Positions 441 through 29,183 of a stretch of DNA of 43,786 nt are shown here, piece by piece. Made by a program: the position numbers and the translations under genes. The stretch is from an uncultured Methanosarcinales archaeon. GTDB lineage: Archaea; Nanobdellota; Nanobdellia; Woesearchaeales; UBA525. Every line of letters starts with the position of its first letter. Position 1 is the first letter of the stretch. The notes beneath the pieces are model-generated. The model made no database searches. It was given only the letters and a program-made list of their open reading frames with translations, and was not told the DNA's origin. Location of the stretch: positions 1-43,786 of the forward strand of contig CAZDJS010000002.1 in the NCBI GenBank assembly GCA_964505795.1, in the 5' to 3' direction.

Positions 441-896
441 CTAACAAAATTCTATTGTAAAACGTAATTGTCCTGCGTTTGTTTGTAGTAGTTGACTCGG
501 AGCAGCAAATCTGTTTGGACCTTCGCAAGTTCCTGGGTCATAAGAAAAACCATCTATTTTTTGATTGTTAAGTTCAACGTAAGCAACAGCTGGTCTTTGC
601 AAACTTGCTTCGAGCATCTCTTCCCACACCTCTTGAGCAGCGTCACAAACACTTTCGAAGCCACAAGTCAAAAAACTTTGTGTAACGCAACGATCAAGTG
701 CGGTTGCGAGATCATAACCACAACTCGGAATTGTTGTTTCGAGCATCGCTGCTTCGAGTGACTTCCCATAATTATCTGCGTCTTGAATGTTTCTTGGTGT
801 CGTATCAGTTCCTGAGAATCCTAGAAAAATAGCGACCGCAAGTACCATGATAAAAACAATGAAGACCAATCCTATAATTTCCATTTGTGCCCTCAT
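441..896 (-). CDS. Type IV pilin-like protein with class III signal peptide (151 aa)
   Basis: The N-terminus is MRA|QMEIIGLVFIVFIMVLAVAIFLGF: a short basic n-region, [KR][GA]-Q, then about 20 hydrophobic residues. It has a 4-nt overlap with the upstream gene (893-896). Confidence 0.6.
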   Translation of the reverse strand: MRAQMEIIGLVFIVFIMVLAVAIFLGFSGTDTTPRNIQDADNYGKSLEAAMLETTIPSCGYDLATALDRCVTQSFLTCGFESVCDAAQEVWEEMLEASLQRPAVAYVELNNQKIDGFSYDPGTCEGPNRFAAPSQLLQTNAGQLRFTIEFC

Positions 897-1384
897 CCGC
901 GCACCTCCAATTCACCAAGCACATAAATATTTTCTCGAGGATCATAAATAACCACAGGAATAAATTGTGTCAAATAATTTTCTGAGTTCAGTCCGTCAAA
1001 AAGAACTGTTTCTGTGTTTGAATTTGGATAGAGTTCTCGAAGAATAATATCTCTATTTCCAAAAAGATCGGCATATTGAAGTCGTATCCTCTCATCATAA
1101 TTTGGATTGCTAATATTTGTTAACCATTCTCCAAGTATTTCTGCTTTAAGCAAATCAATGCAAACGCTGTTTTCTCTTCCTGCTTGCGAGCAAGAAAGCT
1201 CTTCTATATTACTCAATCGAACTCCAAGTGCAAGTATTTCTTGTGAGATTTCTTGACGCGTATTTTGTTCATTGCTCTCTTCACTTCCCACTACAAAAAT
1301 GAAAAGTCCAAGAAGTACTAATAATATAAGAACTATTGCTACAATTATTGTTTCTAATGCCTGGAGTTGTGCTCGTTTCATCAT
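893..1384 (-). CDS. Type IV pilin-like protein with class III signal peptide (163 aa)
   Basis: The N-terminus is MMKRA|QLQALETIIVAIVLILLVLLGLFIFVV, and the rest is a soluble domain. Confidence 0.6.
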   Translation of the reverse strand: MMKRAQLQALETIIVAIVLILLVLLGLFIFVVGSEESNEQNTRQEISQEILALGVRLSNIEELSCSQAGRENSVCIDLLKAEILGEWLTNISNPNYDERIRLQYADLFGNRDIILRELYPNSNTETVLFDGLNSENYLTQFIPVVIYDPRENIYVLGELEVRG

Positions 1385-1419: not shown

Positions 1420-1545
1420 ATAATATGTTGCCTTGGAGTAAAGACAGAAATCACACCGATTCATGCAGGTGTGATTTCGTAATCTCTGCGAGGGACTCGC
1501 AGTAAATCTCCGCAACATATTATTTGATTCTTTTGTCGCCAACTC
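1420..1545 (+). repeat. Structured repeat element, copy A (MITE-like or small RNA)
   Basis: It has 12-bp perfect terminal inverted repeats, ataatatgttgc (1420-1431) and gcaacatattat (1512-1523). Internal hairpins are gaaatcacacc/ggtgtgatttc and ctgcgag/ctcgcag. It shares conserved blocks with copies at 11184-11290 and 16027-16140. Confidence 0.7.
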
Positions 1546-2434
1546 ATATTGTTGGGCAACTGTTTGCCAAGAGTATGCTGTTTGCCCTGTTGAGTCTTTG
1601 AGTAATTGAATTAATTTCATTTATTTGAGTAAGACTTGTTGTTTCTAATTCTGTAAGTGCGTTTCGAGCATCATTGTATGCGCGCTCACAATTCTCATTT
1701 TGAGTTCCTAATAATTGATTTATTCGTTCTTTGTTAAAATTTGCAAGAAAGTGCATTTTTTGTTCTGCAACACCAAGTCCGCATTCGTAACGCTCTTTTG
1801 TTGTGCTCACAATTGCGGCGAGTAAGAGTTCTTTATTCACGTAAGTGCTTTCATCATCTGAATAAATTATTCTTCCTTGCTCTGCATTATCAGGGATTTT
1901 GATTACTATTCTCCCACCTATTTGTGATGGATCAGGCTCTTGGTCTGTGACAAAAATTGCATCTTGCGGACTGTCAGATATGTCATTAACTGTTTCACCA
2001 CCAATGAATTCTCGTACATTAACATCTACTGTGTTTTGCACATATAATGGCTTATTATTTGGCATCATATAGGTTATTGCTGTTATTGGCATGCCGATGT
2101 AGAGTTCTTCTGAACGTATTGTTGTAAGACCATCGAGTAAAGGCGGCGAGAAGAGCATGTGCTCAGGAATATTTCGTATTTGTCCTGACAATTGAACAGC
2201 ATAAGAGTTTTCACATGTTGTTTGTAAATTTGAAAAGCTTGTTCTCACAATGCTCCCAAGAGATCCTTTTGCGTTTTCTATTGTTCGCATCACTTGTTGA
2301 AAAGATTGCGTTTCTTGTCGTTCTTCTCCAGTGTCTGTAAGGTTTCTTGCTATTGCAATGAATAATAGTAAAAAGAACGTTCCTGCAACTGCTACAAGTA
2401 TCCAATTGAATGAAAATTGTATTTGTCCTCTCAT
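1544..2434 (-). CDS. Type IV pilin-like protein with class III signal peptide (296 aa)
   Basis: The N-terminus is MRG|QIQFSFNWILVAVAGTFFLLLFIAI. It has a 4-nt overlap with the upstream gene (2431-2434). Confidence 0.6.
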   Translation of the reverse strand: MRGQIQFSFNWILVAVAGTFFLLLFIAIARNLTDTGEERQETQSFQQVMRTIENAKGSLGSIVRTSFSNLQTTCENSYAVQLSGQIRNIPEHMLFSPPLLDGLTTIRSEELYIGMPITAITYMMPNNKPLYVQNTVDVNVREFIGGETVNDISDSPQDAIFVTDQEPDPSQIGGRIVIKIPDNAEQGRIIYSDDESTYVNKELLLAAIVSTTKERYECGLGVAEQKMHFLANFNKERINQLLGTQNENCERAYNDARNALTELETTSLTQINEINSITQRLNRANSILLANSCPTI

Positions 2435-2916
2435 GAGACCTTGACGCTAAATCCTGTTCCTTCAAAAAGAATTTTCGCCCCACCTCTGTTTTGTTTGCAA
2501 ACAATATTATTTGTTGTTATTTTTTCAAAGTTTCCTAATGGTTCTAAAATGCCGTCTTGAACAAGAAAGATGTTGTTTTTTGTTTCTGAGTCAAGCTCTG
2601 CTACTTGTTGTAACAGTACTTTTGTGTTTTCAGCGACTGAAAGACTAGATGTTATATAACCACCATTCGGCTCTTCTCCTATAAAACATATTGCTTGTGC
2701 TCCACATGGAATATTGAGTGTTTCTTCTTGGCGAACTCCTCTTGTGTCATAGGTTTCTTGTATTTCACTTAAAGCTCGTATGAATTGTGATTTCTCTGCC
2801 TCACATGAAGTATCAGAAAGATTTGTGATTAACTTCACACTGAGAAGAACAGTGGCTATAATAACTATTGAAACAAGGATAAATCCGAATACGTGTTGTA
2901 TTTGGGCACGAATCAT
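2431..2916 (-). CDS. Type IV pilin-like protein with class III signal peptide (161 aa)
   Basis: The N-terminus is MIRA|QIQHVFGFILVSIVIIATVLLSV. It has a 4-nt overlap with the giant gene upstream (2913-2916). Confidence 0.6.
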   Translation of the reverse strand: MIRAQIQHVFGFILVSIVIIATVLLSVKLITNLSDTSCEAEKSQFIRALSEIQETYDTRGVRQEETLNIPCGAQAICFIGEEPNGGYITSSLSVAENTKVLLQQVAELDSETKNNIFLVQDGILEPLGNFEKITTNNIVCKQNRGGAKILFEGTGFSVKVS

Positions 2917-5900
2917 TTTCCACCTTTCGTTTCATCAACAAACTCGTCTAATTCTGAAAAAGCATCTTTTTTCTTTTTTGCTTGTTCAGAGCTTTCTTTT
3001 GTAATAGTTTTAGACTCAGCATTATTTTGTTTAGACTCATTTTCTTGATTATTTTCTACTTGATCACTGTCTTCCTTATCTTGTTTTTGTGTTCCGTCAT
3101 CAAACGAGGACATGATCTTTGCTCTTTTTGCTTCTCGCTCTTGTTCTCGTTGTCTATAATTTTCAAGTTTCTCTTGCTCAAGTCGCTGTTGCTCTTGTAT
3201 TTGTTCTTGAGTTAATTGAGGAGGTCGTTGAGGAAAATCTTGTCTTTGTACATTCTGCTCTTGCCTTGAACGAATATCATAGGCAGTGTAAAGATAATAT
3301 CCTGAGCCCCCCATCAATACCACTCCGAGAATCATGAGAATGAGTGCAAGCCAAGAAAATCCTTCTTCAATTTCTGTAGGTGGATTATTTTGATTTCTTT
3401 CTTCACGATTAAAGCCACCATCTGAATCACTACCTGAACCACCATCTGAACCGCCACCTGAACCCTCATTACCTGGTCCTCCGAGCACGGTATTACACGT
3501 CGAAGTATCATAAGTACAATCAGCATTGCAAGAACTTATTGTTCCTGAGAATTCTGGATTATAAAATTGACAAGAACTAAGAGGAAGGTCCGTTCCGTCG
3601 CATTCTTCTCCTGTTTCAACTATATTATTTCCACAAACTGAGGAAGTTGGAGGAACGCTAATTGGTGGCCCGCAAGTAGAAACATCTAACTTACAAATTG
3701 ATGTACAAGAAGAAGCTGAACCTTCTCTTCCATAGATAGAACAAGCTACTGCGAACTCAGAATCGTCACATTCTTCACCTTCATTAAGCTCGCCGTTACC
3801 ACAAAGTGTAGGATCTGCTACTGGAGGAAGCGAACAAGAAGAAAGAACAGGAGTACAAAATGGAGTACACTCATCAAAAGTTCCTGAAAGTCCGACCTCA
3901 GAACAAGAAGCAGAACCTAAGAGAACTCCATCACAAAACTCTCCATTATCAAGAACACCATTACCACAAAGAGCAGGATCTGGAAGATCAGAACAAGTTG
4001 ATAAATCAGGAGTACAATCATTATTACACGAAGTTGGCGTTCCTTCTAAGCCGAAAAATGAGCAGCTTGCTGCAAACTCATCACCATCGCATAACTCACC
4101 AGTCTCTGCAACTCCATTACCACAAACCGGGTTTGATTGCTCTATCGTACAAGTATCAGAACAACCATCCCCTGATATAAGATTTCCATCGTCACATGCT
4201 TCGTCTTCATGCTGTGTTCCATCGCCACATATTGCTCTGTTCGTACATTCAAGAGCTCCATTTTCGTAAACTGTTATTATCTTTGTTTCTGAGGTTCCTG
4301 TGTTTCCTGCAGCATCAATTGGAGTAAATTGAACTGAAACTGAATCATTATAGAGGGTTGAGTCAAGCTCATAACGATCTGCTGTTGTGTTTGTTGTGTT
4401 TGTATCGATTGTTATCTGAGTTGTTACTGGAGAATTGTCTGTGATGTTAAACTCTATTGTTGTTGTCGCGTCTTTACAAACAAAATCATTTGCAACAGGG
4501 TTAATAATCGGTGCTATTGTATCAACACTAAAAGATATTGTTTTGAAAGACTGTTCTGCCAAAGAATTAGTACAGCGAACAAGAATAGAGTGCGCCCCTT
4601 CATCAAGCGTTACTAAAAGACCTGCTGCATGAACCCCTTGGTCATCTGCTGTCATTGAATTGTATGCTCCTGCAATTCCTGAATCAGGATCTCGATATTC
4701 ACAAATGCTTGTTGCTGATGGTCTCACAATAACGTCTGGTTGTGGATTGTTCGTGTATTGTTGTGGTGAGAGAACTTCAATTTCAGTGTTTGAAAAATCT
4801 ATTGTGATAGGGAGTGCTTTTGATATTATTTGTCCTGCCTTATCTGTACAAACAACTCTATAATCTAAGACTTGTGCTTGCTGTGAAGTTATTTCACTCA
4901 AATCAAGTTCGTGCTCGTGATCTGTTGTGTAGGTGTTTGCATCACTAAGGTCTTCACCATCAAAGGTAACTGTCGTGTCTTTGAGTAATTGACAAACTGT
5001 TTCTGTGTTTGTTGTTGCTGTAATTGTTGTTTTTCTACTTGTAAAATCATTCACAGGATTAGGGTCTGCACGTAGTTCCGTAATTGATGGTCTCTGAGTG
5101 GTTATTCCGAAATCAAGCACTTGGGTATGGATTGTTTCATCGTCTTCAACACAACGAATATGAACTGAACGATCAGTATTCACATTTTTAAATAGTTCGT
5201 GAATAAACCCATCTGTGCTTTGGGCTTGTTGATGACCTTCGTTCGGGTCGATTCCTGGCAAATCAAGTCGGAAGCCGCAAATCGCTTCTCGTTTTGTTTG
5301 AATGGTTATATCAAATGGGTCTGTATCAAAACCAAGCGGTGGTTCATAATATTGTATAAATGGTCCGGGATTACAAGCATCACTGTTTAGCTCTTGAAGT
5401 GTTGTTGTTACTGGGTTTGCTTGTGCAATATTCCCTGCCCTGTCATGAACATCAACTTCCCAAGTTAGTTCTTGGCTTGTAAAACTTGGAGTGGTCACTT
5501 CAACGAATCCACTTGTTGAATAACCCTGTTCCAATACTGTTGAGCCGTCTTTGAGAGTCCAATTAAATCCATGGACTTGGTCATTATCTTCTGCCTCAAA
5601 AAATGCTGTGGCTGTGTTTCCACAAACCGCCTCAGAAGCATTAATAAGGATGTTATTTGGGGGGATTCTATCTGTCGTAAAATTATATTCTATCGTTGTC
5701 TCTTTATTTTGTTGAGTGCAAGTTATTGTTGTTGTATAATCTTGTGAGGGATTGGTCGATACTTGTCTTGAATGAATTGTTCCCTCTTGGTTCATGAATT
5801 CTCCATCAAGTTCACAATCAGCAAATATGTTTGTTTGTGCTCGTATAACCACAGGGTCTGCATTCGTTAAGGGCTCTGGTTCAATAATACTAATTTCAAT

Positions 5901-6950
5901 TATTGCGTCATAATCAATTGTAACGAGAATGTCTTCTTGTGTTGAGCGTCCTGCAAGATTCGTACATTGTATTGTGTATTCTTTCTCTTGTCTTTCTGTA
6001 CTCGTTATTATTTCATTAATTCCTTCATCTGAACTATAATCCAAAATTTCAAGATGTTCTTGTTTGTAAGTGTCAAAATCTCCTTGTATCACATCGTCAA
6101 GGAAAAATTCTTCACTACTGCCTCTTTTTCGTATCGTACAAATAGTATCTTGATTAGTTTCAACAAGTAAACTTAGTGTAGGATCTTGCTCATTAAATAC
6201 TGTTGGTGGTGTGAGAGTAACAACTATTGTTGGTCCTTCTTCAAGAACTCCGATTGAAAATTGTTCAGTAAGAAGACGAGGAACTACAGCCCTGCTGAGT
6301 TTGTATCTTTGACAAAGTACACTTAAAGTGCTGCTTGTCGTTTCTAATCCGCTAATTTTGTGTCTCGTGCCTAAATTTGGCGCGGTGTGTTGATTCGGAT
6401 CACCACTCGGAGTGCTTGCACTCATTCTTGTGAGTGAAACGTGATTAAAATCGTTTGGGGGGTTTTGTCCAAGAAAATATTTACATTCTGCATTAAAAGG
6501 AAGTATTTCATCATCATTTCCGTACACGAAAGTTAATATGTTTACACTATATGGTGTGCTTTGTGCAAAGCCAGATGCAGGTGAGAGCATCATTGCGTTG
6601 AGTCCTGTTACGCTAAACTCGACTGTGTCTGGAATACTATTTGTGAGCCCGAGCGTGCTTCTCGCAACAACTTCAAAAGAGTATCTTCCTTCACCAAGTT
6701 CACCAGCAGAAGGACGTATTTCATATTCATTAGCAAAACCATCGTCTGCTGAAGGGTCATAAGCAAGGCCTATTCCTGTATTGGTTTCGAGAAAAATAAG
6801 ATTTGTTTGTGCATCAAGAATTTGTACTGGCTCATTATATGTTACTTTAATGACAGGGTCGGGAAAATTAACTAAGCCAAGGTCGAAGTCCGCCGCTAAA
6901 ACAGGGGTTGTAAAGAAAAGAATCAGAAGAAAAAAAGAAAAAATCTTCAT
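2913..6950 (-). CDS. Giant type I membrane surface protein (1345 aa) with Ig-like modules, Cys-rich repeats, a TM anchor and a charged tail
   Basis: It begins with a Sec-type signal peptide, MKIFSFFLLILFFTTPVLA|A. About 7 modules of roughly 100 aa each carry a conserved Cys pair. Five tandem CGNG-x-E-x-GE-x-CD six-Cys repeats follow, then a G/S/D linker. The TM helix FSWLALILMILGVVLMGGSGYYLY lies at about nt 3283-3365. The tail is about 120 aa and Q/E/K-rich. Confidence 0.85.
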   Translation of the reverse strand: MKIFSFFLLILFFTTPVLAADFDLGLVNFPDPVIKVTYNEPVQILDAQTNLIFLETNTGIGLAYDPSADDGFANEYEIRPSAGELGEGRYSFEVVARSTLGLTNSIPDTVEFSVTGLNAMMLSPASGFAQSTPYSVNILTFVYGNDDEILPFNAECKYFLGQNPPNDFNHVSLTRMSASTPSGDPNQHTAPNLGTRHKISGLETTSSTLSVLCQRYKLSRAVVPRLLTEQFSIGVLEEGPTIVVTLTPPTVFNEQDPTLSLLVETNQDTICTIRKRGSSEEFFLDDVIQGDFDTYKQEHLEILDYSSDEGINEIITSTERQEKEYTIQCTNLAGRSTQEDILVTIDYDAIIEISIIEPEPLTNADPVVIRAQTNIFADCELDGEFMNQEGTIHSRQVSTNPSQDYTTTITCTQQNKETTIEYNFTTDRIPPNNILINASEAVCGNTATAFFEAEDNDQVHGFNWTLKDGSTVLEQGYSTSGFVEVTTPSFTSQELTWEVDVHDRAGNIAQANPVTTTLQELNSDACNPGPFIQYYEPPLGFDTDPFDITIQTKREAICGFRLDLPGIDPNEGHQQAQSTDGFIHELFKNVNTDRSVHIRCVEDDETIHTQVLDFGITTQRPSITELRADPNPVNDFTSRKTTITATTNTETVCQLLKDTTVTFDGEDLSDANTYTTDHEHELDLSEITSQQAQVLDYRVVCTDKAGQIISKALPITIDFSNTEIEVLSPQQYTNNPQPDVIVRPSATSICEYRDPDSGIAGAYNSMTADDQGVHAAGLLVTLDEGAHSILVRCTNSLAEQSFKTISFSVDTIAPIINPVANDFVCKDATTTIEFNITDNSPVTTQITIDTNTTNTTADRYELDSTLYNDSVSVQFTPIDAAGNTGTSETKIITVYENGALECTNRAICGDGTQHEDEACDDGNLISGDGCSDTCTIEQSNPVCGNGVAETGELCDGDEFAASCSFFGLEGTPTSCNNDCTPDLSTCSDLPDPALCGNGVLDNGEFCDGVLLGSASCSEVGLSGTFDECTPFCTPVLSSCSLPPVADPTLCGNGELNEGEECDDSEFAVACSIYGREGSASSCTSICKLDVSTCGPPISVPPTSSVCGNNIVETGEECDGTDLPLSSCQFYNPEFSGTISSCNADCTYDTSTCNTVLGGPGNEGSGGGSDGGSGSDSDGGFNREERNQNNPPTEIEEGFSWLALILMILGVVLMGGSGYYLYTAYDIRSRQEQNVQRQDFPQRPPQLTQEQIQEQQRLEQEKLENYRQREQEREAKRAKIMSSFDDGTQKQDKEDSDQVENNQENESKQNNAESKTITKESSEQAKKKKDAFSELDEFVDETKGGK
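3495..4235 (-). repeat. In-frame tandem Cys-rich repeat modules (1 short + 4 full, about 50-56 aa each) inside the giant gene
   Basis: The units start at approximately nt 4235, 4127, 3972, 3804 and 3639 on the minus strand. They read ICGDG..., VCGNGVAETGELCDG..., LCGNGVLDNGEFCDG..., LCGNGELNEGEECDD... and VCGNNIVETGEECDG.... Each has 6 Cys with similar spacing. Confidence 0.8.
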
Positions 6951-9106
6951 TATTCTCCCTCAAGTATTTCTGCCTGTGTAATTCTTGGAATGCCCATTTC
7001 AATAATAGGAACTTCTTGTGTTTGTACTTCTTCTAAGTTTTCACTCAAGTCTTGCGAATAATATCTAATTGAAATTATTGTTTGTTCTCCAATCTCCATG
7101 TCTGGGATAGTAGTTGTCGCTTCTGAGAGTGTTTTTGTTGGGTAGCATGTTCCTGTTTCATCTATGCAAAACCTTGTTGTGATATCTCCTGCCAAATAAT
7201 AATTATCGCTTGTAACATAACCAAGTCCTGCAACTTCGTGCGCACCGACAAGACCAGAAGGAATGATTAACTCTGTGCTCGGTGCTTGTGCGTCTTGAAG
7301 ACAACCTACTCCTTCTGATGCAAAGACACCGTTTTCTATACAATCATCTTCTGGGTCAGGGCCTGCACGCGCATCTGCATTCTTATAACACCTGTTACTT
7401 TGTTCATTCCAAGCGCACAAGCCAATTCCGAACTCATCATTACTTGCTCTTTGTACTTCGTGAGTTCCTCCTGTTCTTTCATTACCTGAGTAACTAGCAT
7501 CTACTTGAGCGTTTGAACCAGCAGCAATACAATCTTCTTGAGTGTCGTAGAATCGGCAAGCCATGTCATCTTTATGAACACAGCTACTTGGAAGAACATC
7601 TGCTTGCAATCCGTTTTGTTCTTCATCAAAATAACAATCATTACTTATTGCTGAACAAAGTGTTTGTGTGCATCCTCCAAATGTGTCTTCGCAGCTACTA
7701 CAGGCAGGGCTTTGTCCTTGGCAAATTCCTGTTCCTGTTTCTTCAAAAATATCTGTCCATGAACAATCATCAGGTACTTGGCAATTATTTTGTGAGCAGG
7801 CTCCTTGGCTTAGGTAGTCTTCGCAAGTGACTATGTTAGCACAGGAATTATAAGCATCATTTACTGTTAATGTAGTATCCTCATAACAAAAGTTTTGTAT
7901 TGCTGGCGAGTTGCAAGCACGCTCAACCCCTCCTTGCCAAATACTCATAACAAGGTTACTGAGCTTTCCAAAGAGTCCACTGCATCGATCACAAGGTGGT
8001 TGTTGAACACAGGCAACACCATTTCCAACAGTTGTGCAAGTCATTCCCTCTCCGCATTCTGTTTCTTCAAGAACATTATTTTCATCACAGCTAACTATTG
8101 CTGATGGGTTGTTCTGGCACCATTCAAGACCTTCTTCAGGATTAGTCATACACTCTTCATCTCCTGTTGTAATGCATGATTCATCTCGTTCTTCAAGCGC
8201 TGGGTAAAGTCCTGAAGGATATTTTGCGGCAACTTCATAACAATATTCTGTATTTGGTTGCAATCCTGAGTCGATGTATTCTTCATCCATTATTTCAGTA
8301 AATATAACGCTTGAACCAGGTTCTCCTTCAACCATTTCTGTTCTAATAACGTGATAATACTCTCTGTTTCCACAAGTATCATCTGAAGTAAATGCGAGCC
8401 TGACTTCGTCTGTTCCTCGAAGAATGTCTGCTGTGATTGTTGGATTTGTTGAGGGTTCACAAGCTTCTTGATTACAATTGAGTTCAATGTCTATTTGTTG
8501 GTTAGCGTCAACAATTATTGCTTCGCTATAAGGAAGGCAACCTTCATGCCCTGCAATAATAAATCCTTCGAGTTCAGGAATGTCTTGAATTTCATACTCC
8601 CCTTGTTCGTTCGTGCTATCTTGAAAGCTACTTCCTGTTGTTGGAATGTACACTGTCGCGAGTTCAAGTGCTGTTCCATTTTGGTCTGTGACTGTTCCTT
8701 CTACAGTATAAGTGTCTGATGGTGTTGTTCCTCCTGAAGATCCTGAACAGACTTCAACACAGCTTGAGCCCGAAGGGAGTATTTCCCAACCATATGAATC
8801 ACCTAGTGCACCACATTGTCCTGCATTCATTTGCATGCCTTCTTCGTTCAAATTCCAATCACCTGAATTAGGTGCGCTAGCTCCTGCACAACAACAACCA
8901 GTCTGACACTGAAAAACGCCACTGTCTTGCACTGCAGCACAGACGCTAGAATGTTCAACTTCAGAAGGATTACAAGTATCTCCTGAATCTTCGCGACACT
9001 CAAAAGTGTCTGAATCGATACAACACACCACTCCTAGAGCGTGTGTAGGAAGAAAGAATAAGAGAAAACAAAGACTAGATATTATTACGAATGTTTTTTT
9101 CACCAA
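6950..9106 (-). CDS. Secreted Cys-rich protein (718 aa) with carboxypeptidase-regulatory-like and FN3-like beta-sandwich segments
   Basis: The signal peptide is MVKKTFVIISSLCFLLFFLPTHALG. The segment YTVEGTVTDQNGTALELATVYIPTTG...NEQGEYEIQDIP is CarboxypepD_reg-like. There are many Cys and no TM anchor. The start is TTG/GTG, preceded by a GGTGG SD-like motif. Its stop overlaps the ATG of the giant gene (TAATG at 6948-6952). Confidence 0.8.
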   Translation of the reverse strand: MVKKTFVIISSLCFLLFFLPTHALGVVCCIDSDTFECREDSGDTCNPSEVEHSSVCAAVQDSGVFQCQTGCCCAGASAPNSGDWNLNEEGMQMNAGQCGALGDSYGWEILPSGSSCVEVCSGSSGGTTPSDTYTVEGTVTDQNGTALELATVYIPTTGSSFQDSTNEQGEYEIQDIPELEGFIIAGHEGCLPYSEAIIVDANQQIDIELNCNQEACEPSTNPTITADILRGTDEVRLAFTSDDTCGNREYYHVIRTEMVEGEPGSSVIFTEIMDEEYIDSGLQPNTEYCYEVAAKYPSGLYPALEERDESCITTGDEECMTNPEEGLEWCQNNPSAIVSCDENNVLEETECGEGMTCTTVGNGVACVQQPPCDRCSGLFGKLSNLVMSIWQGGVERACNSPAIQNFCYEDTTLTVNDAYNSCANIVTCEDYLSQGACSQNNCQVPDDCSWTDIFEETGTGICQGQSPACSSCEDTFGGCTQTLCSAISNDCYFDEEQNGLQADVLPSSCVHKDDMACRFYDTQEDCIAAGSNAQVDASYSGNERTGGTHEVQRASNDEFGIGLCAWNEQSNRCYKNADARAGPDPEDDCIENGVFASEGVGCLQDAQAPSTELIIPSGLVGAHEVAGLGYVTSDNYYLAGDITTRFCIDETGTCYPTKTLSEATTTIPDMEIGEQTIISIRYYSQDLSENLEEVQTQEVPIIEMGIPRITQAEILEGE

Positions 9107-9332: not shown

Positions 9333-10268
9333 TCATTCTTGCACCATTCCAGTATCTGGATCGTATTTTGGAGGATTTTCCCCCTCAACGTTTGTATCTT
9401 CATAGGCTGGTCTATCTTCTCCAAGAAAGCTAATCGTGAGTTGTGTTCCTCGATATTTGCTGTTCAGATCGGTAAATGAGTATTTCCAATCATTTCCTGA
9501 TTGTGTCATCGAAAAAATAAATCCTTCACGATAAAATGTGCTTTGTTGAGCGTGATTTTCGTCAGTTACTGTAATTCTTGGATCTTTTGTCGTCATAATT
9601 AGTCTCTCTTCAATAAAACTATAGAGTTGTAAAAGCCGTGAAGTATAGGCTAAGTCGAGAGTGTGTGTTTCTTGCTCGTTTTCATACTCTGCATCTACAA
9701 TGACTGCACTTTTTCCAAAAGTAACGCTTACTTCTGGGTTTGTCCACTGAGATATTCTTGTTCCAAGTTCTTCATCAACAGCAGAATTTTGACAAGTGAT
9801 CAGATCTTCTTCTATTTTTTGTGTGAGCTGTTCTTGATGAGAATTTGACCCGTAACTATCTCGAAAGCAGTGTTGATTTTCTGTTTGTAATCGGCTGTTA
9901 GGTCCTTGTGGGTCACAGAGTGGTGTAAGGTTTCGTGTGCCAAAGAGCGTGCTTCTTGTGGTGTCGTCGTAGCGCGAAAGTGGTGTTCCAAAGACGTCAT
10001 CAAGAGGTTCTGTTAAGCCAATATCTTCTGGTTTTTGATTACTAGGACCTAGTAATGCATAATACTCTCCTTCTGCTAGACTATCAAAATAATCGTAGAC
10101 TGCATTCTCCACACAAGAGCTCAAGTAATTTCTTGCCTCTGGGGTGACTCCTGAAGTTGTTTCAATCGAACTAAATCCGACATAAGCAAGCAGTCCAAAA
10201 ACAATAACGAGCACAAGTCCGACAATAAAGAAAATTGTGAGTTGTCCTTTTTTTGTTCCTGTGTTCAT
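9333..10268 (-). CDS. Type IV pilin-like protein with class III signal peptide (311 aa)
   Basis: The N-terminus is MNTGTKKG|QLTIFFIVGLVLVIVFGLLAYVGF. It has an ATGA overlap with the Memo-like gene (10265-10268). Confidence 0.6.
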   Translation of the reverse strand: MNTGTKKGQLTIFFIVGLVLVIVFGLLAYVGFSSIETTSGVTPEARNYLSSCVENAVYDYFDSLAEGEYYALLGPSNQKPEDIGLTEPLDDVFGTPLSRYDDTTRSTLFGTRNLTPLCDPQGPNSRLQTENQHCFRDSYGSNSHQEQLTQKIEEDLITCQNSAVDEELGTRISQWTNPEVSVTFGKSAVIVDAEYENEQETHTLDLAYTSRLLQLYSFIEERLIMTTKDPRITVTDENHAQQSTFYREGFIFSMTQSGNDWKYSFTDLNSKYRGTQLTISFLGEDRPAYEDTNVEGENPPKYDPDTGMVQE

Positions 10269-11119
10269 TTTTCCTCAAAAACTATTGATGCGTAACTCAC
10301 AGTGTTTTTTTGTTCTTGGAGAATTTCTGCACTCGTATAATATTGCTCAAGCAAAACTTTGCAGGGTTTGAGCAATTCAAGCAAAAGGGTTATTGCTAAA
10401 GTCCCATCTATTGGTGCAAAATTTTGGTCAATGTAGTGTTGCCATGCTTTTGCGTTTTGTGCTTTGATAAGATCTATTCCTTTTGCATCAAACTCGTAAA
10501 CATTTTTTTGCACGTCTTCAAAGAACTGAACATAATGAAACATCGGCCCGTGTCGTAAGAAATCTGAACTCACGATAAAAATAGCTTTTTTGTTTTGCTC
10601 CATGAGCGTTTCTTGCAAATCAAGAGCGAACTTTTTCAAATCTAAATCGGAACTTACAATAACTGGAAGAATTTTTATTGCTTCGTTTTGTTTTTTTGCA
10701 AACTGCAAGTAAGGGAGTTGCACCTCAATTCCATGATCTCGATTGTGAATTTCCTCGTCGTAACTAATTGTTCCTTTTTCTACAATTCCTCGTGCAAGGT
10801 CTTGATCAACACGAACCATTCCAAGCGGTGTTTCAAAAGTTTCTGTGGTTATTCCTGATTCTCTACTGTGGTGATTTGCGCTTAGTATAATGTAGACTTC
10901 AGGCATTGGTGTTTCTGCGAGTGCTTTATACGACCATGCAGCGCATGGTGAACAGTGAGAGTAGGGACTGTTTGGTGCAATGATTGCCTTTACTTTTCTT
11001 CCTTCTCCGCTAGGAAGTGCTCCTGGTCCTCTTTCGTTATGATAACTCGCATCTATTTGTTCTGAGAGTAATGTTTCTGCTCGTTCGTAATAAATTCCTG
11101 AACATGTTGGACTTCGCAT
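10265..11119 (-). CDS. Memo-family protein (MEMO1 / AmmeMemoRadiSam system protein B-like)
   Basis: AIIAPNSPYSHCSPCAAWSYKA, DHGIEVQLPYLQ, IVSSDFLRHGPMFHY and TVSYASI align with the MEMO1 blocks [43 protein letters not shown] and SVSYAAG. Confidence 0.8.
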   Translation of the reverse strand: MRSPTCSGIYYERAETLLSEQIDASYHNERGPGALPSGEGRKVKAIIAPNSPYSHCSPCAAWSYKALAETPMPEVYIILSANHHSRESGITTETFETPLGMVRVDQDLARGIVEKGTISYDEEIHNRDHGIEVQLPYLQFAKKQNEAIKILPVIVSSDLDLKKFALDLQETLMEQNKKAIFIVSSDFLRHGPMFHYVQFFEDVQKNVYEFDAKGIDLIKAQNAKAWQHYIDQNFAPIDGTLAITLLLELLKPCKVLLEQYYTSAEILQEQKNTVSYASIVFEEK

Positions 11120-12996: not shown

Positions 12997-15984
12997 TTAA
13001 GGACATTGATAGATTATGTTTGGATCGAAAGGATTATTGTTTTGTTCTGGAGGGCATTCGGAATCAATAAAATCGAATACTTGGCACGTTCTTATTTGTG
13101 GACTCGGGGATATACAAAAATTATTTTGGCCTGGACAATCAAATTGGTTTTCACAATTTGAAAAACTACAACTCACGTGATTGTAAGGGTTTAAAAGAGG
13201 TCCTAAGTCTTCGTTTGCTGTTTTATCTGACGCATCCCAACATCCTTTGCTGTTACCTGAACCTTGTGATTCATAATGAATTTGGTATCCTCCTTGTCGA
13301 GGTTCGAGAGTAACAATAGCCCAGTTTGAGCTTCCTCCAGGATTATTATATAGTTCAATAGCTTCTTGAGTGTAAGGATCGTAAGGAATTATTTTAGTTA
13401 AGTCCCCGTCAATTGTTCCATCATCACCATCCCAGTCACAAAGATGTCCTCCATTTCCTGATTGTTCACCGCTGGCTTCGACAATTATTTCTGCATCTCC
13501 AAACTCACCAATTCTTGCTGAGAAGGTGTACTTTCCTTGAACGTGCATAACATTTGTTGTTGATGGACAAGCGTTCTGACAGTCTGCACAGGTGTTAATA
13601 TCTTCTGTATCTGGGCTGCAAAAACCATCGAAATTGCATGCTTCTCCTGTACTTCCACCATCATCAACACAGGTGTTATCTTGATTGTCAATAAGTCCGT
13701 TGCAATTATTATCAATTCCATCGCCACAGATTTCTTGCTCTCCGGGATTAATTGTTTCATTGTTATCATCACAATCGAATGCTTGAGGACTGTCTGTACA
13801 TTCTGTGACGCTCAGGTCTTGTAAGAAGCAGGACCAATCATCAACGAGGTATTGGAAGGTTCCTGCAGGAAGGTCATCAATTTCTTTGTCACTCTCAACA
13901 ATTCCTTCTTGTGTGACATCATTAAGTGTTCCTTCGCAGCTTGAGTAGTCGAAGTCTTGACTCAGACCCGGTGTGTCTTGTGTTATGTAGACTATATCTT
14001 CACCTTCTGTATTGATAATGATGTTTGTTGCTGCGCCTTCATCAAGTCTGCTCTTGTAGGTTTCTTCAAGGCTTTCAATAACTTCAATACTTCCTTCTGA
14101 ACGCTCAGCATCAATGTGATACAACGCATTTGCTTCTATACTCTCGAGAATATTGCTGTTGATTGTGATGAGTTGTGCGTTGTTTTGTAAGAGTGCTTCT
14201 TTGTGGGTTATTTCCGTTCCCGAAACAAGCTCTGCTTTGCTGTACTTTTCTGGTGTTGTCGTTGCAACTCCATCAAGAAGACCTGGAGCAATAATTCCTT
14301 CGTGAAGGTCTTGAGCGTAATAGAGTTTTGCGCCGACACTGTTCATTCCTGCGCGGCACGCTTGATAACCGCGATCATATTGTGCTCTTGGTTGTCCTTT
14401 ATCATGATAGACAAAGGTGTTTGTTTGTGTGATTGTTGCAAGACCTGCGCAAGTAAAGGCGAGCTCGAGACGTGCTTCATAGTTTTGATTTGTCGGTGGT
14501 GCTCCAAAGTCTGCTTCTGCGAGTTCGCCAGCATCGAGTAAGAAGATGGGTTGTCCACCATCATTTCTAATTTCTTGCATTACTTCTCTGTATGTTGTTG
14601 CTTGTGTGCTAAAGGCGTGTGCACTGAGATTGCAGTCATCGCCATACGAGCAAGCGTCTCCTGAAAGAGCAGTATCTAGCCCCTCTGCAAGATCAGTTAA
14701 ATGCGGGCTCACAACTATTTCTTGATAGCAATCATACTCTGTTTTATCTTGAGCGAGACAAACTTCAAATGTTGATTCGTAATTTCTTCCAGCCTGGGTA
14801 ATTTCCGCAGTGTCAAAGTCGCTTGTAACTAATGGTTGAAAAAATGCACTAATATTTTCTGTTAATCCATCCATAATTGTGTACCGAAGAGTGTTACTCA
14901 ATGTTTGCAATTCGCTAGGCAATCCTTCTCCTGTAAAGTAACCATCACCATCTGCGTCTTCGCAATTAAAACAGCCTGAAGTGTCAGCCTCGCAAGTATC
15001 TGTGTTACAACTTATTTCTCCAAAAGAAAAACCAAGGTCTTCACAACTAACACCACTCTCAAATCCGTCTTGGTCTGCTTCACAAGCTTCGCCAAACTCC
15101 AATATTTCGTTTCCACATACCGCTCCGGGTAAAGGCGTTTCGCCGTTTGGTTCTATTCTGAGTCGTGCAGTAATTTTCTTCCACTCGTTCGGTGCAAGAT
15201 TATCAAAGCGAATGACTTGTGTATTATCAGGTCCAAGTTCGTAGCTTCCTTGTACAAGTTCTCGAATATCAAAAGCAAAGTTTTTGAAAAGAATAATTCC
15301 TTGTCCGTTAGCTTGTGCGTTTTCTGCGTGATAGAAGCCTTGTATTTCTCGTGAGCCGTCTCCTGTTGCTTTTGCAAAGTATCCTCTTGTGAACGCTTCT
15401 ACATCTTGAATTTGTTCCGGTTCAAAACCAAAAAGGTTTCTGAAGAAGTCAAGAAGTCCATCCCATATTGTTGTGTCAAAGTTTGGTGTGAATGAATACG
15501 TAACTAAATAGGTTACTGGATTGCCAAGACGATAATAGAGTTGAACTCCAAACCCATTATCGACTGCTCCTTCACAATGCCACCAGTTATTATCAAGTTC
15601 TGTAGCATCATCACAAGCAGCTAAATTAAGGTCTTCTTCTCTAATATGATTTGTATTATCAATGTCTGGTTGGTAGTAGTCTTTGAGATGATTTATGACT
15701 TCGCTCGCTCCTTCAAATGAAAATATTGTTGCTTTTGCATCACTATCTATAAGGCTCATCGAACATACTGCAGGATCTGTTGGATACCCAGGAATGTTAG
15801 GGAGAAGTTTTGGATTTGTGAGAACATCAGCAGGCCCGCATTCTATCGTGTAATCTTGGTTTTCTGCAAGTTCCATGAGTGTGACAGCGTAGTGTGCTTT
15901 GAGTTCGTTTGCTTCTATTGCTTGCCCGGAGCTTACAGAGAGGAGAAGAAAGAGCATAATAAGTATTTGTTTAGCACCTACCAC
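12997..15984 (-). CDS. Secreted Cys-rich protein (995 aa)
   Basis: The start is GTG and the signal peptide is ...ILIMLFLLLSVSSGQA. It has one CGNEILEFGEACE... six-Cys module (about nt 15105-15122) like those in the giant gene. It also has a CDDNNETINPGEQEICGDGIDNNCNGLID motif (about nt 13675-13775). There is no TM anchor. Confidence 0.8.
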   Translation of the reverse strand: MVGAKQILIMLFLLLSVSSGQAIEANELKAHYAVTLMELAENQDYTIECGPADVLTNPKLLPNIPGYPTDPAVCSMSLIDSDAKATIFSFEGASEVINHLKDYYQPDIDNTNHIREEDLNLAACDDATELDNNWWHCEGAVDNGFGVQLYYRLGNPVTYLVTYSFTPNFDTTIWDGLLDFFRNLFGFEPEQIQDVEAFTRGYFAKATGDGSREIQGFYHAENAQANGQGIILFKNFAFDIRELVQGSYELGPDNTQVIRFDNLAPNEWKKITARLRIEPNGETPLPGAVCGNEILEFGEACEADQDGFESGVSCEDLGFSFGEISCNTDTCEADTSGCFNCEDADGDGYFTGEGLPSELQTLSNTLRYTIMDGLTENISAFFQPLVTSDFDTAEITQAGRNYESTFEVCLAQDKTEYDCYQEIVVSPHLTDLAEGLDTALSGDACSYGDDCNLSAHAFSTQATTYREVMQEIRNDGGQPIFLLDAGELAEADFGAPPTNQNYEARLELAFTCAGLATITQTNTFVYHDKGQPRAQYDRGYQACRAGMNSVGAKLYYAQDLHEGIIAPGLLDGVATTTPEKYSKAELVSGTEITHKEALLQNNAQLITINSNILESIEANALYHIDAERSEGSIEVIESLEETYKSRLDEGAATNIIINTEGEDIVYITQDTPGLSQDFDYSSCEGTLNDVTQEGIVESDKEIDDLPAGTFQYLVDDWSCFLQDLSVTECTDSPQAFDCDDNNETINPGEQEICGDGIDNNCNGLIDNQDNTCVDDGGSTGEACNFDGFCSPDTEDINTCADCQNACPSTTNVMHVQGKYTFSARIGEFGDAEIIVEASGEQSGNGGHLCDWDGDDGTIDGDLTKIIPYDPYTQEAIELYNNPGGSSNWAIVTLEPRQGGYQIHYESQGSGNSKGCWDASDKTANEDLGPLLNPYNHVSCSFSNCENQFDCPGQNNFCISPSPQIRTCQVFDFIDSECPPEQNNNPFDPNIIYQCP

Positions 15985-18065: not shown

Positions 18066-20093
18066 ATGGCCGAGCTCGAACTTGCTGATCAAATACAAAA
18101 ATTCAAAGAATTCTTTGAAGAATTTTATCTCGACCAACTGCTCGAAAGGCTCCGAAAAGGAGAATTGTGGCTCACGGTTCCATTCTCGGATCTTGCAATC
18201 TTTAGTCCTGAACTTGCAAACTCCGTTCTTGAAAGCCCTGAAGATAGCGTAAAAGCAGCTCAGATGAGCCTGCAAAACATTGACTTGCAAGGCGATGTTA
18301 AGGGTTTTGAAATCCGTTTTAGCACTTTACCAGCAAGCCAACACTTGATGCTTCGTGAAGTTCGTGCGAGTCATATCGGAAGATTTTTACAAATCGAAGG
18401 AGTAGTACGACAAAAAAGCGATGTTCGTCCTCAAGTGACCAGTGCTCGTTTTGAGTGTCCGAGCTGTGGAAACATCATTCCTGTGTTACAGCTTGATCAA
18501 AAATTTCGTGAACCTAGTCGTTGTGGCTGTGGACGAAAAGGAAAGTTTCGTTTACTCAGTAAACAACTTGTTGACGCACAAAATCTTGTTCTTGAGGAAG
18601 CTCCTGAAGACTTGGAAGGTGGTGAGCAACCAAAAAGAATGAATGTCATCTTACAAAAAGACCTTGTAAGTCCTATGAGTGATAAAAAAACCAATCCTGG
18701 AAGCAAGATTGTCGTTACAGGGGTTGTTAAAGAAGTTCCTATCACTCTTGCAACAGGTGGTCAAAGCACCAGATTCGACTTGATGATTGATGCTAATTTT
18801 GTTGATGCCCTTCAAGAAGACTTTACACAAATCAAAATTTCTTCGAAGGAGGAAGAAGAGATTCTTACCTTTGCAAAGAGCGAAAATCCTTTTCAATCCC
18901 TTGTCACAAGCCTTGCTCCTACTGTGTACGGACACGATAAAATCAAAGAAGCGCTCATTTTGCAATTGCTTGGTGGCTGTCGAAAGTCAGAAAACGAAGG
19001 AGCGAATAGTCGTGGAGACATTCATATTTTACTTATTGGTGATCCTGGTTCTGGAAAAAGTACTTTGCTCAAACGGGTAACGAATGTTGCTCCAAAATCT
19101 CGTTTTGTTTCAGGAAAAGGAGCGAGTGGTGCGGGACTTACTGCTAGTGTGGTGAAAGATGAGTTTTTGCGTGGTTGGGCTCTTGAAGCAGGTGCTCTTG
19201 TACTTGCAAATCGTGGTATTTGTTGTATTGACGAGCTTGATAAGATGTCTGATGATGATAGGAGTGCGATGCACGAAGCGCTCGAGCAACAAACAGTCAC
19301 TATTAGTAAAGCAAACATTCAAGCAACATTGCGATCTGAAACCACTGTTCTTGCTGCCGCAAACCCGAAGTTCGGTCGTTTCGATCCTTATGAACTCATT
19401 GCAAAACAAATTGATTTGCCAAGCACTTTGATTAATCGTTTCGATCTAATTTTTGCTGTTCGTGATATGCCTGACACTGAAAATGATGGAAGACTTGCAG
19501 ACTTTATTTTGAAGCTTCATCAGAACGAAAAAGCTGAAACGACTGAGTTAAGTAAGGATTTCGTTCGTAAATTTATTTCCTATGCAAAAACAAGAGTTCG
19601 CCCTGCACTCACAGATGAAGCCTTAACTGAGATTCGTAATTATTATGTCAAGATGCGTGGTTCTGGTGGTGATGATGCTATTAAGGCCATTCCTATTAGT
19701 GCTCGGCAACTTGAAGCGCTGGTTCGTCTTGCAGAGGCTTCTGCAAAAACTCGCCTTTCAAAAATTGTTTCTCGTGATGATGCACAAGTAAGTATTGATT
19801 TGGTTCATTATTGTTTGAGTCAAATCGGGCTTGATCCTGAAACAGGAATCATGGATATTGATCGTATCACTTCGGGAGTTACTGCAAAGCAAAGAAGTCA
19901 CATACACCTTGTGAAAGATATTATTAACGAGCTTGTTGATAGCTTTGGCGATAAACCAATTCCTATTGAAGATTTAATTCGTGAGTGTGAAATTAAAGGC
20001 GTTTCTGAGAAAAATGTTGAAGAGACGCTTGAAAAACTTAAACGCTCTGGTGATTTGTATAGTCCGAAGCAAGGATTTATTAGTAAGATTTGA
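18066..20093 (+). CDS. mcm: MCM replicative helicase
   Basis: It has a Zn finger CPSCGN...CGCG, Walker A IGDPGSGKST, Walker B CCIDELDKM, the arginine-finger region SARQLEALVRLAEA and a C-terminal winged-helix-like tail. Confidence 0.95.
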   Translation: MAELELADQIQKFKEFFEEFYLDQLLERLRKGELWLTVPFSDLAIFSPELANSVLESPEDSVKAAQMSLQNIDLQGDVKGFEIRFSTLPASQHLMLREVRASHIGRFLQIEGVVRQKSDVRPQVTSARFECPSCGNIIPVLQLDQKFREPSRCGCGRKGKFRLLSKQLVDAQNLVLEEAPEDLEGGEQPKRMNVILQKDLVSPMSDKKTNPGSKIVVTGVVKEVPITLATGGQSTRFDLMIDANFVDALQEDFTQIKISSKEEEEILTFAKSENPFQSLVTSLAPTVYGHDKIKEALILQLLGGCRKSENEGANSRGDIHILLIGDPGSGKSTLLKRVTNVAPKSRFVSGKGASGAGLTASVVKDEFLRGWALEAGALVLANRGICCIDELDKMSDDDRSAMHEALEQQTVTISKANIQATLRSETTVLAAANPKFGRFDPYELIAKQIDLPSTLINRFDLIFAVRDMPDTENDGRLADFILKLHQNEKAETTELSKDFVRKFISYAKTRVRPALTDEALTEIRNYYVKMRGSGGDDAIKAIPISARQLEALVRLAEASAKTRLSKIVSRDDAQVSIDLVHYCLSQIGLDPETGIMDIDRITSGVTAKQRSHIHLVKDIINELVDSFGDKPIPIEDLIRECEIKGVSEKNVEETLEKLKRSGDLYSPKQGFISKI

Positions 20094-28406: not shown

Positions 28407-28630
28407 TTCCGCCCCCTAAAGTCCATGAGAAGCAAGGGTTATATAAACGTTTTTCTTGTTTGGTTTCACACATCAAAATATCTGTTTTCGAGTCTATGAG
28501 AAAATAATTCATAGTTGGGCTGTTTTTTCTTCAAATAGTAATATTTTGTTGTTTGAGCCTTTGTGCTTTGGTTTTCTCTGTATTTTGAATCAGAAATTTT
28601 GTGTTGTTTCTGTTTGTATTTGTGGTGCCA

Positions 28631-28652
28631 CACTCCTTTGTTTCGTGTGGAG
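28631..28652 (-). promoter_or_regulatory. ORB-like box (inverted orientation)
   Basis: The reverse complement ctccacacgaaacaaaggagtg matches ttccacacgaaatcaaggaggt at 29263-29284 in 17 of 22 positions. It contains the TCCA-N-GAAA core typical of archaeal origin recognition boxes. Confidence 0.55.
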
Positions 28653-28777
28653 ATTATTGAGAGAAATTTTTTTGTTCTCGGATTTTTTGTGGTTTTTCTA
28701 ATATTTGTTACTGTTTCATCTTTATAGTGTGTATCACAAAGTATCTAATTCCAAATTAAGATTATTTAGTCCTTGCT

Positions 28778-28794
28778 TTCCACTTGAAATTTCC
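28778..28794 (+). promoter_or_regulatory. Mini-ORB-like box
   Basis: ttccacttgaaatttcc shares ttccac..gaaat with the box at 29263. Confidence 0.4.
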
Positions 28795-28834
28795 TTCTTG
28801 TCTTTTTTTCATATATAATATAATAAATTTCTAT

Positions 28835-28948: not shown

Positions 28949-29183
28949 ATAATAATATAGTAATATGATAAAAAAAAATAATATGATAAAAAACAGCGCC
29001 TCTAAACGAAATCAGAAAAAACGAATGAAAAAACAGAATTGAAAATGTAGGATGAAACAAAATCAAAAATCAAGATCTGAAAAATAATGAATAAATAATC
29101 AATAAATAATATGAATAATAATATGAATAAAATTCAAAATAAAATATTAAGATCTGAAAAAATCTAAATAAAAAATTCAAAAT

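Follow-up and report, generated by a model that had tools for sequence, protein, structure and literature searches.

What does a very long membrane protein with a Cys-rich exterior and a long charged tail do for the archaeon that encodes it? The question is raised by a 43,786-nt stretch of contig CAZDJS010000002.1 (the window), in which an open reading frame (ORF) of 1345 amino acids (aa) beginning with ATG occupies positions 2913..6950 of the minus strand (ORF list and translation). A previous reading of the window, made from its letters and ORF list (the sequence-only reading), had proposed at this position a giant type I membrane protein of unusual composite architecture, acting as an adhesin or receptor that links the outside to an intracellular partner. 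The ORF is a genuine gene, and its product is a very long protein of the cell surface in a tiny, probably symbiotic archaeon. We favor, with evenly balanced confidence, the reading that this protein (the giant) is the membrane-anchored adhesin or receptor arm of a surface apparatus related to type IV filaments, used for contact with another cell (a host) or with a surface.

The frame was present where the sequence-only reading had placed it, and all peptides quoted there were found in the minus-strand translation (stop codon at 2913-2915); the plus-strand frame at 2913..6950 is riddled with stops. The strand itself had been missed, as had the taxon and a conserved operon with prepilin-like genes. 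GC content was ~38% across the window and alike in the giant gene. An open frame of 4 kb at 38% GC, a match of 63.2 bits to the TIGR02232 model and dozens of full-length homologues place the ORF beyond chance. A hydropathy script found two hydrophobic segments, aa 1-19 and aa ~1198-1221. The first was called as a Sec-type signal peptide from its hydropathy (>2.0 over aa 1-19) and its c-region pattern, a V-L-A cleavage-type sequence (MKIFSFFLLILFFTTPVLA followed by AD; 6894..6950, minus strand), and the N-termini of homologues are equivalent to this region. The second, the only further hydrophobic segment, is a C-terminal transmembrane (TM) helix, as previously claimed. The signal peptide, the predicted disulfide-rich ectodomain and the lone TM helix together give a type I topology with the tail inside; the net charge over the 15 residues preceding the helix is -4. 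The giant consists, in order, of a Sec signal, nine immunoglobulin (Ig)-like modules, a Cys-rich stalk and a G/S/D linker, and then of a single TM helix with a tail of 124 aa behind it; it has 44 Cys in total (composition script).

The family was delimited with phmmer: aa 20-900, searched exhaustively against the 1.84 billion representatives of 50% identity clusters, gave 135 representatives at E < 1e-3, 60 at E < 1e-10 and 22 at E < 1e-30. Approximately 25 representatives were co-linear over the whole ectodomain, the closest of them (P0004) at 41% identity. All named family members belong to Woesearchaeota or Nanoarchaeota and are labeled hypothetical; as far as names go, the family seems limited to these groups. 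The window is archaeal because it carries archaeal replication and transcription genes (MCM, both PolD subunits, Orc1/Cdc6, Hef, TrmB and TBP), and it is assigned to DPANN, Woesearchaeota group, because the best named relatives of its MCM protein (62-68% identity) are Ca. Woesearchaeota or "Nanoarchaeota" proteins from metagenome-assembled genomes (MAGs). The architecture that had been called unusual is not unique: it is the standard layout of the whole Woesearchaeota family and resembles that of proteins described previously (PMC4858521).

The array that follows the signal peptide (aa 20-901; 4248..6893, minus strand) was divided into nine Ig-like beta-sandwich modules (aa 20-117, 118-232, 233-345, 346-427, 428-520, 521-616, 617-717, 718-811 and 812-901), where "about seven" had been counted previously. 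Boundaries were drawn from AlphaFold2/DSSP strand blocks and from sequence. The AlphaFold2 model of aa 20-900, for which the input was a 45-sequence alignment of family relatives, was entirely beta, with a mean predicted local distance difference test score (pLDDT) of 91.3. Foldseek searches against PDB returned multi-Ig/fibronectin type III (FN3) arrays exclusively (probability 1.00), so that the beta-sandwich folds suggested by the sequence-only reading were recovered by structure prediction. The top matches were GhpA, the grappling-hook protein of Aureispira (E = 1e-20), MyBP-C/titin, contactin, DSCAM and the macroglobulin (MG) domains of alpha-2-macroglobulin. Matches had E-values of 1e-20 to 1e-16, identities of ~10% and global TM-scores of 0.12-0.15, the low scores being expected because the proteins are flexible strings of domains. 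A fusexin-like fusogen was considered and rejected, since Foldseek gave generic Ig arrays alone.

Pfam models gave sub-threshold matches alone on the giant (Big_13, 22.5 bits against a threshold of 27; DUF4215, 24.2 bits; and PKD_6), and a PDB sequence search with the whole protein found no match (best E = 0.6). Big_13 was above threshold in relatives, such as P0028 (39.9 bits). Among 19 family members scanned with Pfam, Big_13 was found in nine (best E = 9e-10), Ig_J in seven and Y_Y_Y in five.

A conserved Cys pair had been ascribed to every module; the first module has no Cys. The other eight account for 16 Cys, counting C902, which is the opening residue of the next part. In an alignment of 19 family members, 15 of the 16 were invariant and C902 reached a conservation of at least 90%, and across 45 sequences array Cys were hardly ever lost singly. 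Because of this invariance and the near absence of single losses, the residues are predicted to form the disulfide pairs 156/213, 271/329, 379/411, 443/526, 558/600, 653/701, 750/793 and 825/902. The array also contains an old internal duplication, aa ~228-460 resembling aa ~609-842 (self-BLAST E = 5e-14), and further copies of this super-repeat occur in P0002 and P0003 (2241 and 2247 aa, respectively). The ectodomain is very acidic (186 D+E vs. 51 K+R), and N-x-S/T sequons are depleted (7 observed vs. ~14 expected from composition).

The Cys repeat region beyond the array had been read as five tandem six-Cys repeats. The region was confirmed, but it consists of one canonical short unit followed by four extended six-Cys units. 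The canonical unit, a Myxococcus-type cysteine-rich acidic repeat (aa 902-942, CTNRAICGDGTQHEDEACDDGNLISGDGCSDTC...; 4125..4247, minus strand), has Cys at 902, 908, 919, 930 and 934 and follows the pattern CGDG..E.CDDGN...GDGCS..C. The Myxococcus-type assignment agrees with the NCBIfam model TIGR02232 (myxo_disulf_rpt), for which the 63.2 bits of the whole giant exceed a cutoff of 20.8 and come from three stretches, the best at aa 907-939. Pfam DUF4215 did not reach its gathering threshold of 27, a shortfall of sensitivity rather than a contradiction because DUF4215 is related to TIGR02232.

The four extended units (aa 943-994, 995-1049, 1050-1105 and 1106-1153; 3492..4124, minus strand) lie in tandem as the membrane-proximal stalk and were identified by motif scan and by MAFFT alignment of the units. 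Their consensus is CGNGxxExGExCD(x6-8)C(x3)G(x6-9)C(x3)C(x2)D(x)S(x)C. Relative to TIGR02232/DUF4215, the DGN..GDGC half is swapped for a ~30-aa C...G...C...C..D.S.C module. The extended unit was also found in P0002, P0003 and P0014. Other family members carry a different Cys-rich module in the stalk (C.NG..D..E...DCGG.C; Pfam DUF7107 in 9 of 19), and the copy number of stalk modules differs greatly between members. Thus, the stalk is the evolutionarily plastic part of the protein. It is followed by a flexible G/S/D-rich linker, which contains the sequence GGPGNEGSGGGSDGGSGSDSDGG as previously claimed, and by an acidic juxtamembrane segment (together aa 1154-1197; 3360..3491, minus strand; pLDDT <50).

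The single TM helix (aa 1198-1221, FSWLALILMILGVVLMGGSGYYLY; 3288..3359, minus strand) was called from hydropathy and was helical in the AlphaFold2 model (pLDDT 77-93). It carries the family motif MGG[AS]GY.LY, in which G1209, M1213, G1214, G1215, G1217, Y1218 and L1220 are invariant or nearly so. The cytoplasmic tail (aa 1222-1345; 2916..3287, minus strand) is Q/E/K-rich by composition, in line with the tail of ~120 aa reported from the sequence alone (Q 20, D+E 29 and K+R 23 over 124 aa). AlphaFold2, run on aa 895-1345 with a trimmed 13-sequence alignment, gave three helices: the TM helix, a charged 40-residue helix (aa 1248-1287; 3090..3209, minus strand; pLDDT ~89-95) and a C-terminal amphipathic helix (aa 1320-1342; 2925..2993, minus strand; pLDDT ~57), the last two being separated by a disordered acidic/polar stretch. 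The description of the tail as "coiled-coil-like" gained no support: the helix at aa 1248-1287 is confidently predicted, but its heptad pattern is weak, with hydrophobic residues at 5 of 12 a/d positions in the best register. A single charged helix seems the better description.

Each of the two tail helices carries a short linear motif. Motif 1, at the end of the charged helix, is R1276-x6-F1283 (RAKIMSSF in the giant; R..LF..F in most members). Both residues were invariant in alignments A2, A6 (family C-termini trimmed before alignment) and A10; in the 19-member alignment A1, F1283 was invariant and R1276 was at least 90% conserved. Motif 2, in the C-terminal helix, is KDAFSELDEF in the giant and D[VA]F[DS]EL[ED]K[LI]GK in the family consensus, with F1331 and L1334 at least 90% conserved or invariant in family alignments. 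When the ORF set of the related loci described below was scanned for motif 2, matches were confined to giant orthologues of six loci and of the window; the giants of loci L001 and L003 fell outside the scan, their DVFDEL/DVFKEL lying further from the C-terminus. Compared with P0004/P0005, identity was 15/24 (62%) in the TM helix, ~50% in the C-terminal motif region, ~40% in the Ig array and ~19% in the charged helix. The TM helix and the two tail motifs are the best-conserved parts of the giant family. Because they are more conserved than the ectodomain, the comparison of orthologues lends real support to the earlier idea of a tail linked to a partner inside the cell.

The same layout was observed widely in the family. 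A C-terminal TM helix with a tail of 80-400 aa was present in 77 of 136 representatives; family tails measured 83-346 aa (median 169), and permissive patterns detected motif 1 in 65 and motif 2 in 50 of the 136. In a subfamily (P0028, P0034, P0035, P0046, P0050, P0052 and P0056), the tail extends to ~280-320 aa and terminates in a conserved ~70-aa helical module, ..[ND]VFKAILSQLLGQGKL....LLTKKEV..L..LK; the extended tails of this subfamily (P0028, P0034 and others) had no Pfam match. A third motif, [DE][GE][YF][VI]D[LI], occurs in some tails and is absent from the window protein.

Three candidate assignments for this region were set aside. The tail profile gave a marginal match in PDB (E ~1e-3) to the TM/juxtamembrane segment of butyrophilin 3A1, which was judged compositional. 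An archaeosortase/exosortase sorting signal of the PGF-CTERM-like kind was rejected, as there is no PGF-like motif and 124 aa follow the TM helix (83-346 aa in the family). A match to the GspL-like model TIGR01709 (E = 0.057) involved the TM segment alone.

The giant lies in a cluster of minus-strand genes, most of which encode small proteins with a distinctive N-terminus. In archaea, the class III (prepilin/archaellin) signal consists of [KR][GA]Q followed by ~20 hydrophobic residues (the FlaFind-type pattern; RGQ in Haloferax archaellins and pilins). A [KR][GA]x plus hydrophobic N-terminus was found in 6 of 41 non-overlapping window ORFs, 5 of them in the giant's cluster. The first gene of the cluster (9333..10268) encodes a 311-aa protein with the class III N-terminus MNTGTKKGQ followed by LTIFFIVGLVLVIVF..., and L001, L005, L007 and L008 have a homologous N-terminus, KGQxT[IL]F, in the corresponding place. 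Next, immediately upstream of the giant, is a gene (6950..9106) for a secreted protein of 718 aa with 49 Cys and a CarboxypepD_reg-like beta-sandwich. Its orthologues, of 698-1270 aa and with the start SP...CC[IV]P, were found at the same position in L001, L003, L005, L006, L007 and L008.

Downstream of the giant, four genes encode proteins with class III signals, recognized by their N-terminal pattern: a 161-aa protein (2431..2916; MIRAQ followed by IQHVFGFILVSIVII..., that is, MIRAQ/IQHVFGFILV), a 296-aa protein (1544..2434; MRGQ followed by IQFSFNWILVAVAG..., MRGQ/IQFSFNWILV), a 163-aa protein (893..1384; MMKRAQ followed by LQALETIIVAIVL..., MMKRAQ/LQALETIIV) and a 151-aa protein (441..896; MRAQ followed by MEIIGLVFIVFIM..., MRAQ/MEIIGLVFIV), all on the minus strand. 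The class III signals of these small neighbors would be cleaved. Orthologue alignments of the 161-aa and 296-aa proteins showed invariant Cys pairs, with four invariant Cys in the 161-aa protein. Pfam and NCBIfam lack a model for the first two, at least, of these four conserved small-protein families. The TAA stop of the 718-aa gene overlaps the giant ATG (TAATG, with GAGGGAG upstream), and the ATG of the 161-aa gene overlaps the giant TGA stop (ATGA, with AAGGTGG upstream), Shine-Dalgarno-like GGAG/GGTGG thus preceding both the giant and the 161-aa gene. Because stop and start codons overlap in this way in the window, the giant and these two neighbors are read as translationally coupled and probably as one operon.

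Related loci were found by a search with a 12-sequence family alignment and comprise two Woesearchaeota MAGs (P0002), a Logan contig (P0003), five GTDB Woesearchaeota genomes and L009 (partial). The same order was observed in the window and in eight loci: class III protein, Cys-rich secreted protein, giant, downstream class III genes. The giants of the other loci are ~24-29% identical to that of the window. Orthologues of the four small proteins could be traced in the six loci with a readable downstream flank (L001/L002, L003, L005, L008 and L009); L006 stops at the giant, L007 lacks a called gene of group 1, and L004 was clear for group 3 alone. Up to ~10 more class III-signal genes lie downstream in other loci, with up to ~14 motif carriers per locus.

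These extensions span 16726-26537 in L001, 12553-20497 in L003, 9151-19185 in L005, 14921-24358 in L007, 14626-24325 in L008 and 2099-11957 in L009. They hold ~8-14 further class III-signal genes, including those for Cys-rich proteins of 80-95 aa and for proteins of 450-680 aa, one of the latter with a TPM_phosphatase domain. In the window, the cluster has no more than its four core genes and then gives way to an unrelated gene on the plus strand (44-409). On its other side, a Memo-like gene (PF01875, E = 6e-43; 10265-11119, minus strand) has a 4-nt overlap with the start of the first class III gene; it also adjoins the cluster in L001, L006 and L008, with its orientation flipped in L006 and L008. 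In eukaryotes, Memo binds the cytoplasmic tail of a receptor. Further away (12997-15984, minus strand), a secreted protein of 995 aa with 38 Cys combines a metal-binding motif of the MopE type (PF11617, E = 5e-10) with one copy of the extended unit of six Cys, at aa 290 (CGNEILEFGEACE...). Cys-rich ORFs upstream of the PP-loop ATPase gene in L007 and L008, matched by position alone, are possible counterparts, and the 995-aa protein may belong to the surface-protein neighborhood of the giant.

Several elements of this system are of known kinds: Ig arrays, the Myxococcus repeat, an anchor at the C-terminus and, next to pilin genes in archaea, large accessory proteins. In the literature, no description was found of the giant family, the extended repeat, the TM motif, the tail motifs or the gene cluster, and neither Pfam nor NCBIfam has a model for the giant family or its motifs. 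The giant family, the extended six-Cys variant, the TM motif, the two cytoplasmic linear motifs and the fixed Woesearchaeota cluster appear to be new.

The closest published description is that of the Thermoproteales systems 4B/4D/4G (arCOG05471, "S-layer-like"; arCOG05616, Ig-rich "adhesin-like"). Besides many small minor pilins that contain Cys, these type IV pilus (T4P) loci encode a large protein with a C-terminal TM segment and conserved Cys, called "S-layer-like" (S-layer, surface layer), and a second large protein, termed an "adhesin or minor pilin", that has just a signal peptide (PMC4858521). Likewise, large adhesin-like proteins rich in Ig domains, which resemble Aureispira hook proteins, are frequent in archaeal type IV filament loci (bioRxiv 10.64898/2026.04.22.720090). 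The cluster described here similarly sets a pair of large proteins, of which the one has a signal alone and the other a C-terminal TM segment, beside many small class III proteins, nearly all with conserved Cys. The likeness concerns locus layout; in contrast to the Thermoproteales loci, the host belongs to Woesearchaeota/DPANN and no ATPase or platform gene is adjacent. The long motif-bearing tail, the conserved TM helix and the Myxococcus-type stalk are features of the giant that are not described for arCOG05471 or arCOG05616.

Other comparisons concern single parts of the protein. The Myxococcus repeat of TIGR02232/DUF4215 is found here in a protein with an archaeal host. Long linear Ig/FN3-like arrays like that of the giant occur in GhpA (PDB 9fly/9flp), DSCAM, contactin and titin/MyBP-C; the likeness is one of fold class only and is no evidence of homology or common function. 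SlaB, Staphylothermus tetrabrachion and the Haloferax S-layer glycoprotein (before ArtA processing) share with the giant a Sec signal, a large outside part and a C-terminal TM segment (PMC5744192). Unlike the giant, these proteins have short cytoplasmic ends; they show no sequence similarity to it, and sequons are not enriched in the giant. The Haloferax glycoprotein, moreover, has a PGF-CTERM sorting signal, which the giant lacks. In bacteria, the PilY1/PilC adhesin is encoded with four core minor pilins (FimU-PilVWX; GspH-I-J-K in the type II secretion system). The giant's cluster resembles such an operon, by analogy only, in having one large putative adhesin gene with four small prepilin-type proteins, whereas PilY1 has no TM anchor, contains a beta-propeller, is not homologous to the giant and comes from another domain of life. 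A priming role for the four small cluster proteins, as in PilY1 systems, is purely hypothetical.

Under the favored reading, the giant would be exported by the Sec pathway and its signal cleaved, the nine Ig domains and the five-unit Cys stalk then projecting outward. With nine Ig domains at ~4 nm each plus the stalk, the arm would by our own estimate reach tens of nanometers. The lone conserved TM helix would hold this disulfide-stabilized, acidic arm in the membrane, and its GG.GY motif may pack against a helix of a membrane partner; a platform protein is one obvious candidate, the membrane-embedded N-terminal helices of class III proteins are another. On the inside, the tail would present two motifs that may dock a cytoplasmic partner: R-x6-F, where the charged helix ends, and the C-terminal D[VA]F.[ED]L. 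The giant would also associate physically with the products of the neighboring genes.

Several observations weigh against this reading. A TM-anchored protein cannot be a filament subunit itself. No pilin hidden Markov model (HMM; Pfam, NCBIfam) was matched among 33 cluster proteins, and two small-protein orthologue profiles had no PDB match, so that the term "pilin-like" refers solely to the N-terminal motif. AlphaFold2 scores are low for the C-terminal helix (pLDDT ~57) and for the stalk (35-79), and no fold is therefore claimed for the six-Cys unit. A Pfam scan of the window ORFs (43.8-kb contig) found no secretion ATPase, platform protein or prepilin peptidase. In the 10-kb flanks of the related loci none was apparent either: the called genes of L001-L003 carry no precomputed Pfam match of this kind, and L004-L009 were read as an ORF map without an HMM scan. 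The ATPase and platform genes may lie elsewhere in the genome. The missing ATPase and platform genes nearby, together with the lack of a match of the small proteins to a pilin model or solved pilin, also speak for a stand-alone adhesin or receptor, whose class III neighbors would be merely adjacent and would be bitopic membrane or secreted proteins rather than pilins. We consider this improbable: gene order is kept in nine loci at ~25% identity, overlapping stop and start codons argue for co-expression, and the [KR][GA]Q plus hydrophobic N-terminus is concentrated in the cluster (five of six such window ORFs).

The main rival, a role in the wall that we judge somewhat unlikely, would make the giant an S-layer or cell-envelope structural glycoprotein, or an anchoring stalk of the SlaB/tetrabrachion type. 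Its Ig array would then form a wall that, given the pilin-like neighbors, need only be locally adapted for passage of the filament. The Sec signal, the large multi-Ig ectodomain and the single C-terminal TM anchor would suit such a protein, as would the widespread and syntenic occurrence of the gene in Woesearchaeota. The C-terminally anchored, Cys-containing analogues in Thermoproteales T4P loci were labeled "S-layer-like" (Makarova et al., PMC4858521), and the 718-aa neighbor weakly matches an anammox S-layer model (E = 1.3e-4, far below the cutoff). However, sequons fall to half the expected number (7 vs. ~14), no S-layer family HMM (Pfam, NCBIfam) is matched by the giant, and orthologues differ ~two-fold in their number of Ig super-repeats (1345 vs. 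2241-2247 aa), which is awkward for a fixed lattice. The long tail (83-346 aa) with its conserved linear motifs and the conserved TM helix also argue against this role; to our knowledge, a long conserved cytoplasmic tail is not typical of S-layer anchors. That the ORF is a spurious or degenerate frame, or a gene recently acquired from a virus or mobile element, is effectively refuted: dozens of homologues span the full length and share the conserved Cys and motifs, the structure prediction is confident, the GC content is like that of the surrounding DNA and the chromosomal neighborhood is conserved with housekeeping genes (Memo, PP-loop ATPase). Nothing spoke for it, an empty precomputed Pfam field aside.

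A bolder extension, which we regard as quite unlikely, is that the giant, its Cys-rich partner and the class III proteins form an undescribed, Woesearchaeota-specific organelle for host contact, with the giant as an integrin-like link. The arm of Ig domains and Cys stalk would then bind the partner cell, and the GG.GY and tail motifs would couple it to a filament ATPase, the cytoskeleton or the division apparatus.

Other features of the window concern its replication genes. A ~1-kb AT-rich intergenic region (28407-29420, GC ~31%) separates orc1/cdc6 (27207-28406, minus strand) from a TrmB-family gene. It contains an AT-rich tandem array with a period of ~38 nt (28795-28993), ~7 copies of the 11-nt unit AAAACTAACCC (29179-29250) and an inverted pair, CTCCTTTGTTTCGTGTGGA / TCCACACGAAATCAAGGAG (28633-28651 and 29264-29282; 89% complementary), that resembles an origin recognition box (ORB) in appearance. 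This region, which lies beside the PolD and cdc6 genes, is probably a replication origin. One 543-aa ORF (39151-40782, plus strand) matches both DNA_primase_S and DNA_primase_lrg, which suggests a fused PriS-PriL primase. The MCM gene (18066-20093, plus strand) is intein-free; several close MCM relatives (80-83% identical over the aligned part of the query) are ~1100 aa long and have intein/LAGLIDADG domains (PF14528, PF14890). Elsewhere in the window (38029-39115, plus strand), overlapping genes for a nucleotidyltransferase (NTase, 213 aa) and a HEPN protein (157 aa) form a typical NTase/HEPN toxin-antitoxin-like pair.

Woesearchaeota are abundant, uncultivated archaea with small genomes and are thought to depend on partner cells. 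The giant family is a concrete candidate for attachment in this group, conserved across the lineages sampled and combining an Ig-array arm with a co-encoded prepilin-like set. Its invariant short cytoplasmic motifs are directly testable handles, and definition of the giant and small-protein families would improve the annotation of DPANN genomes. If the giant were merely an S-layer protein, a wall protein of the Woesearchaeota group would thereby be identified. If the organelle reading were true, the giant would be a prokaryotic outside-in/inside-out adhesion receptor in a DPANN symbiont.

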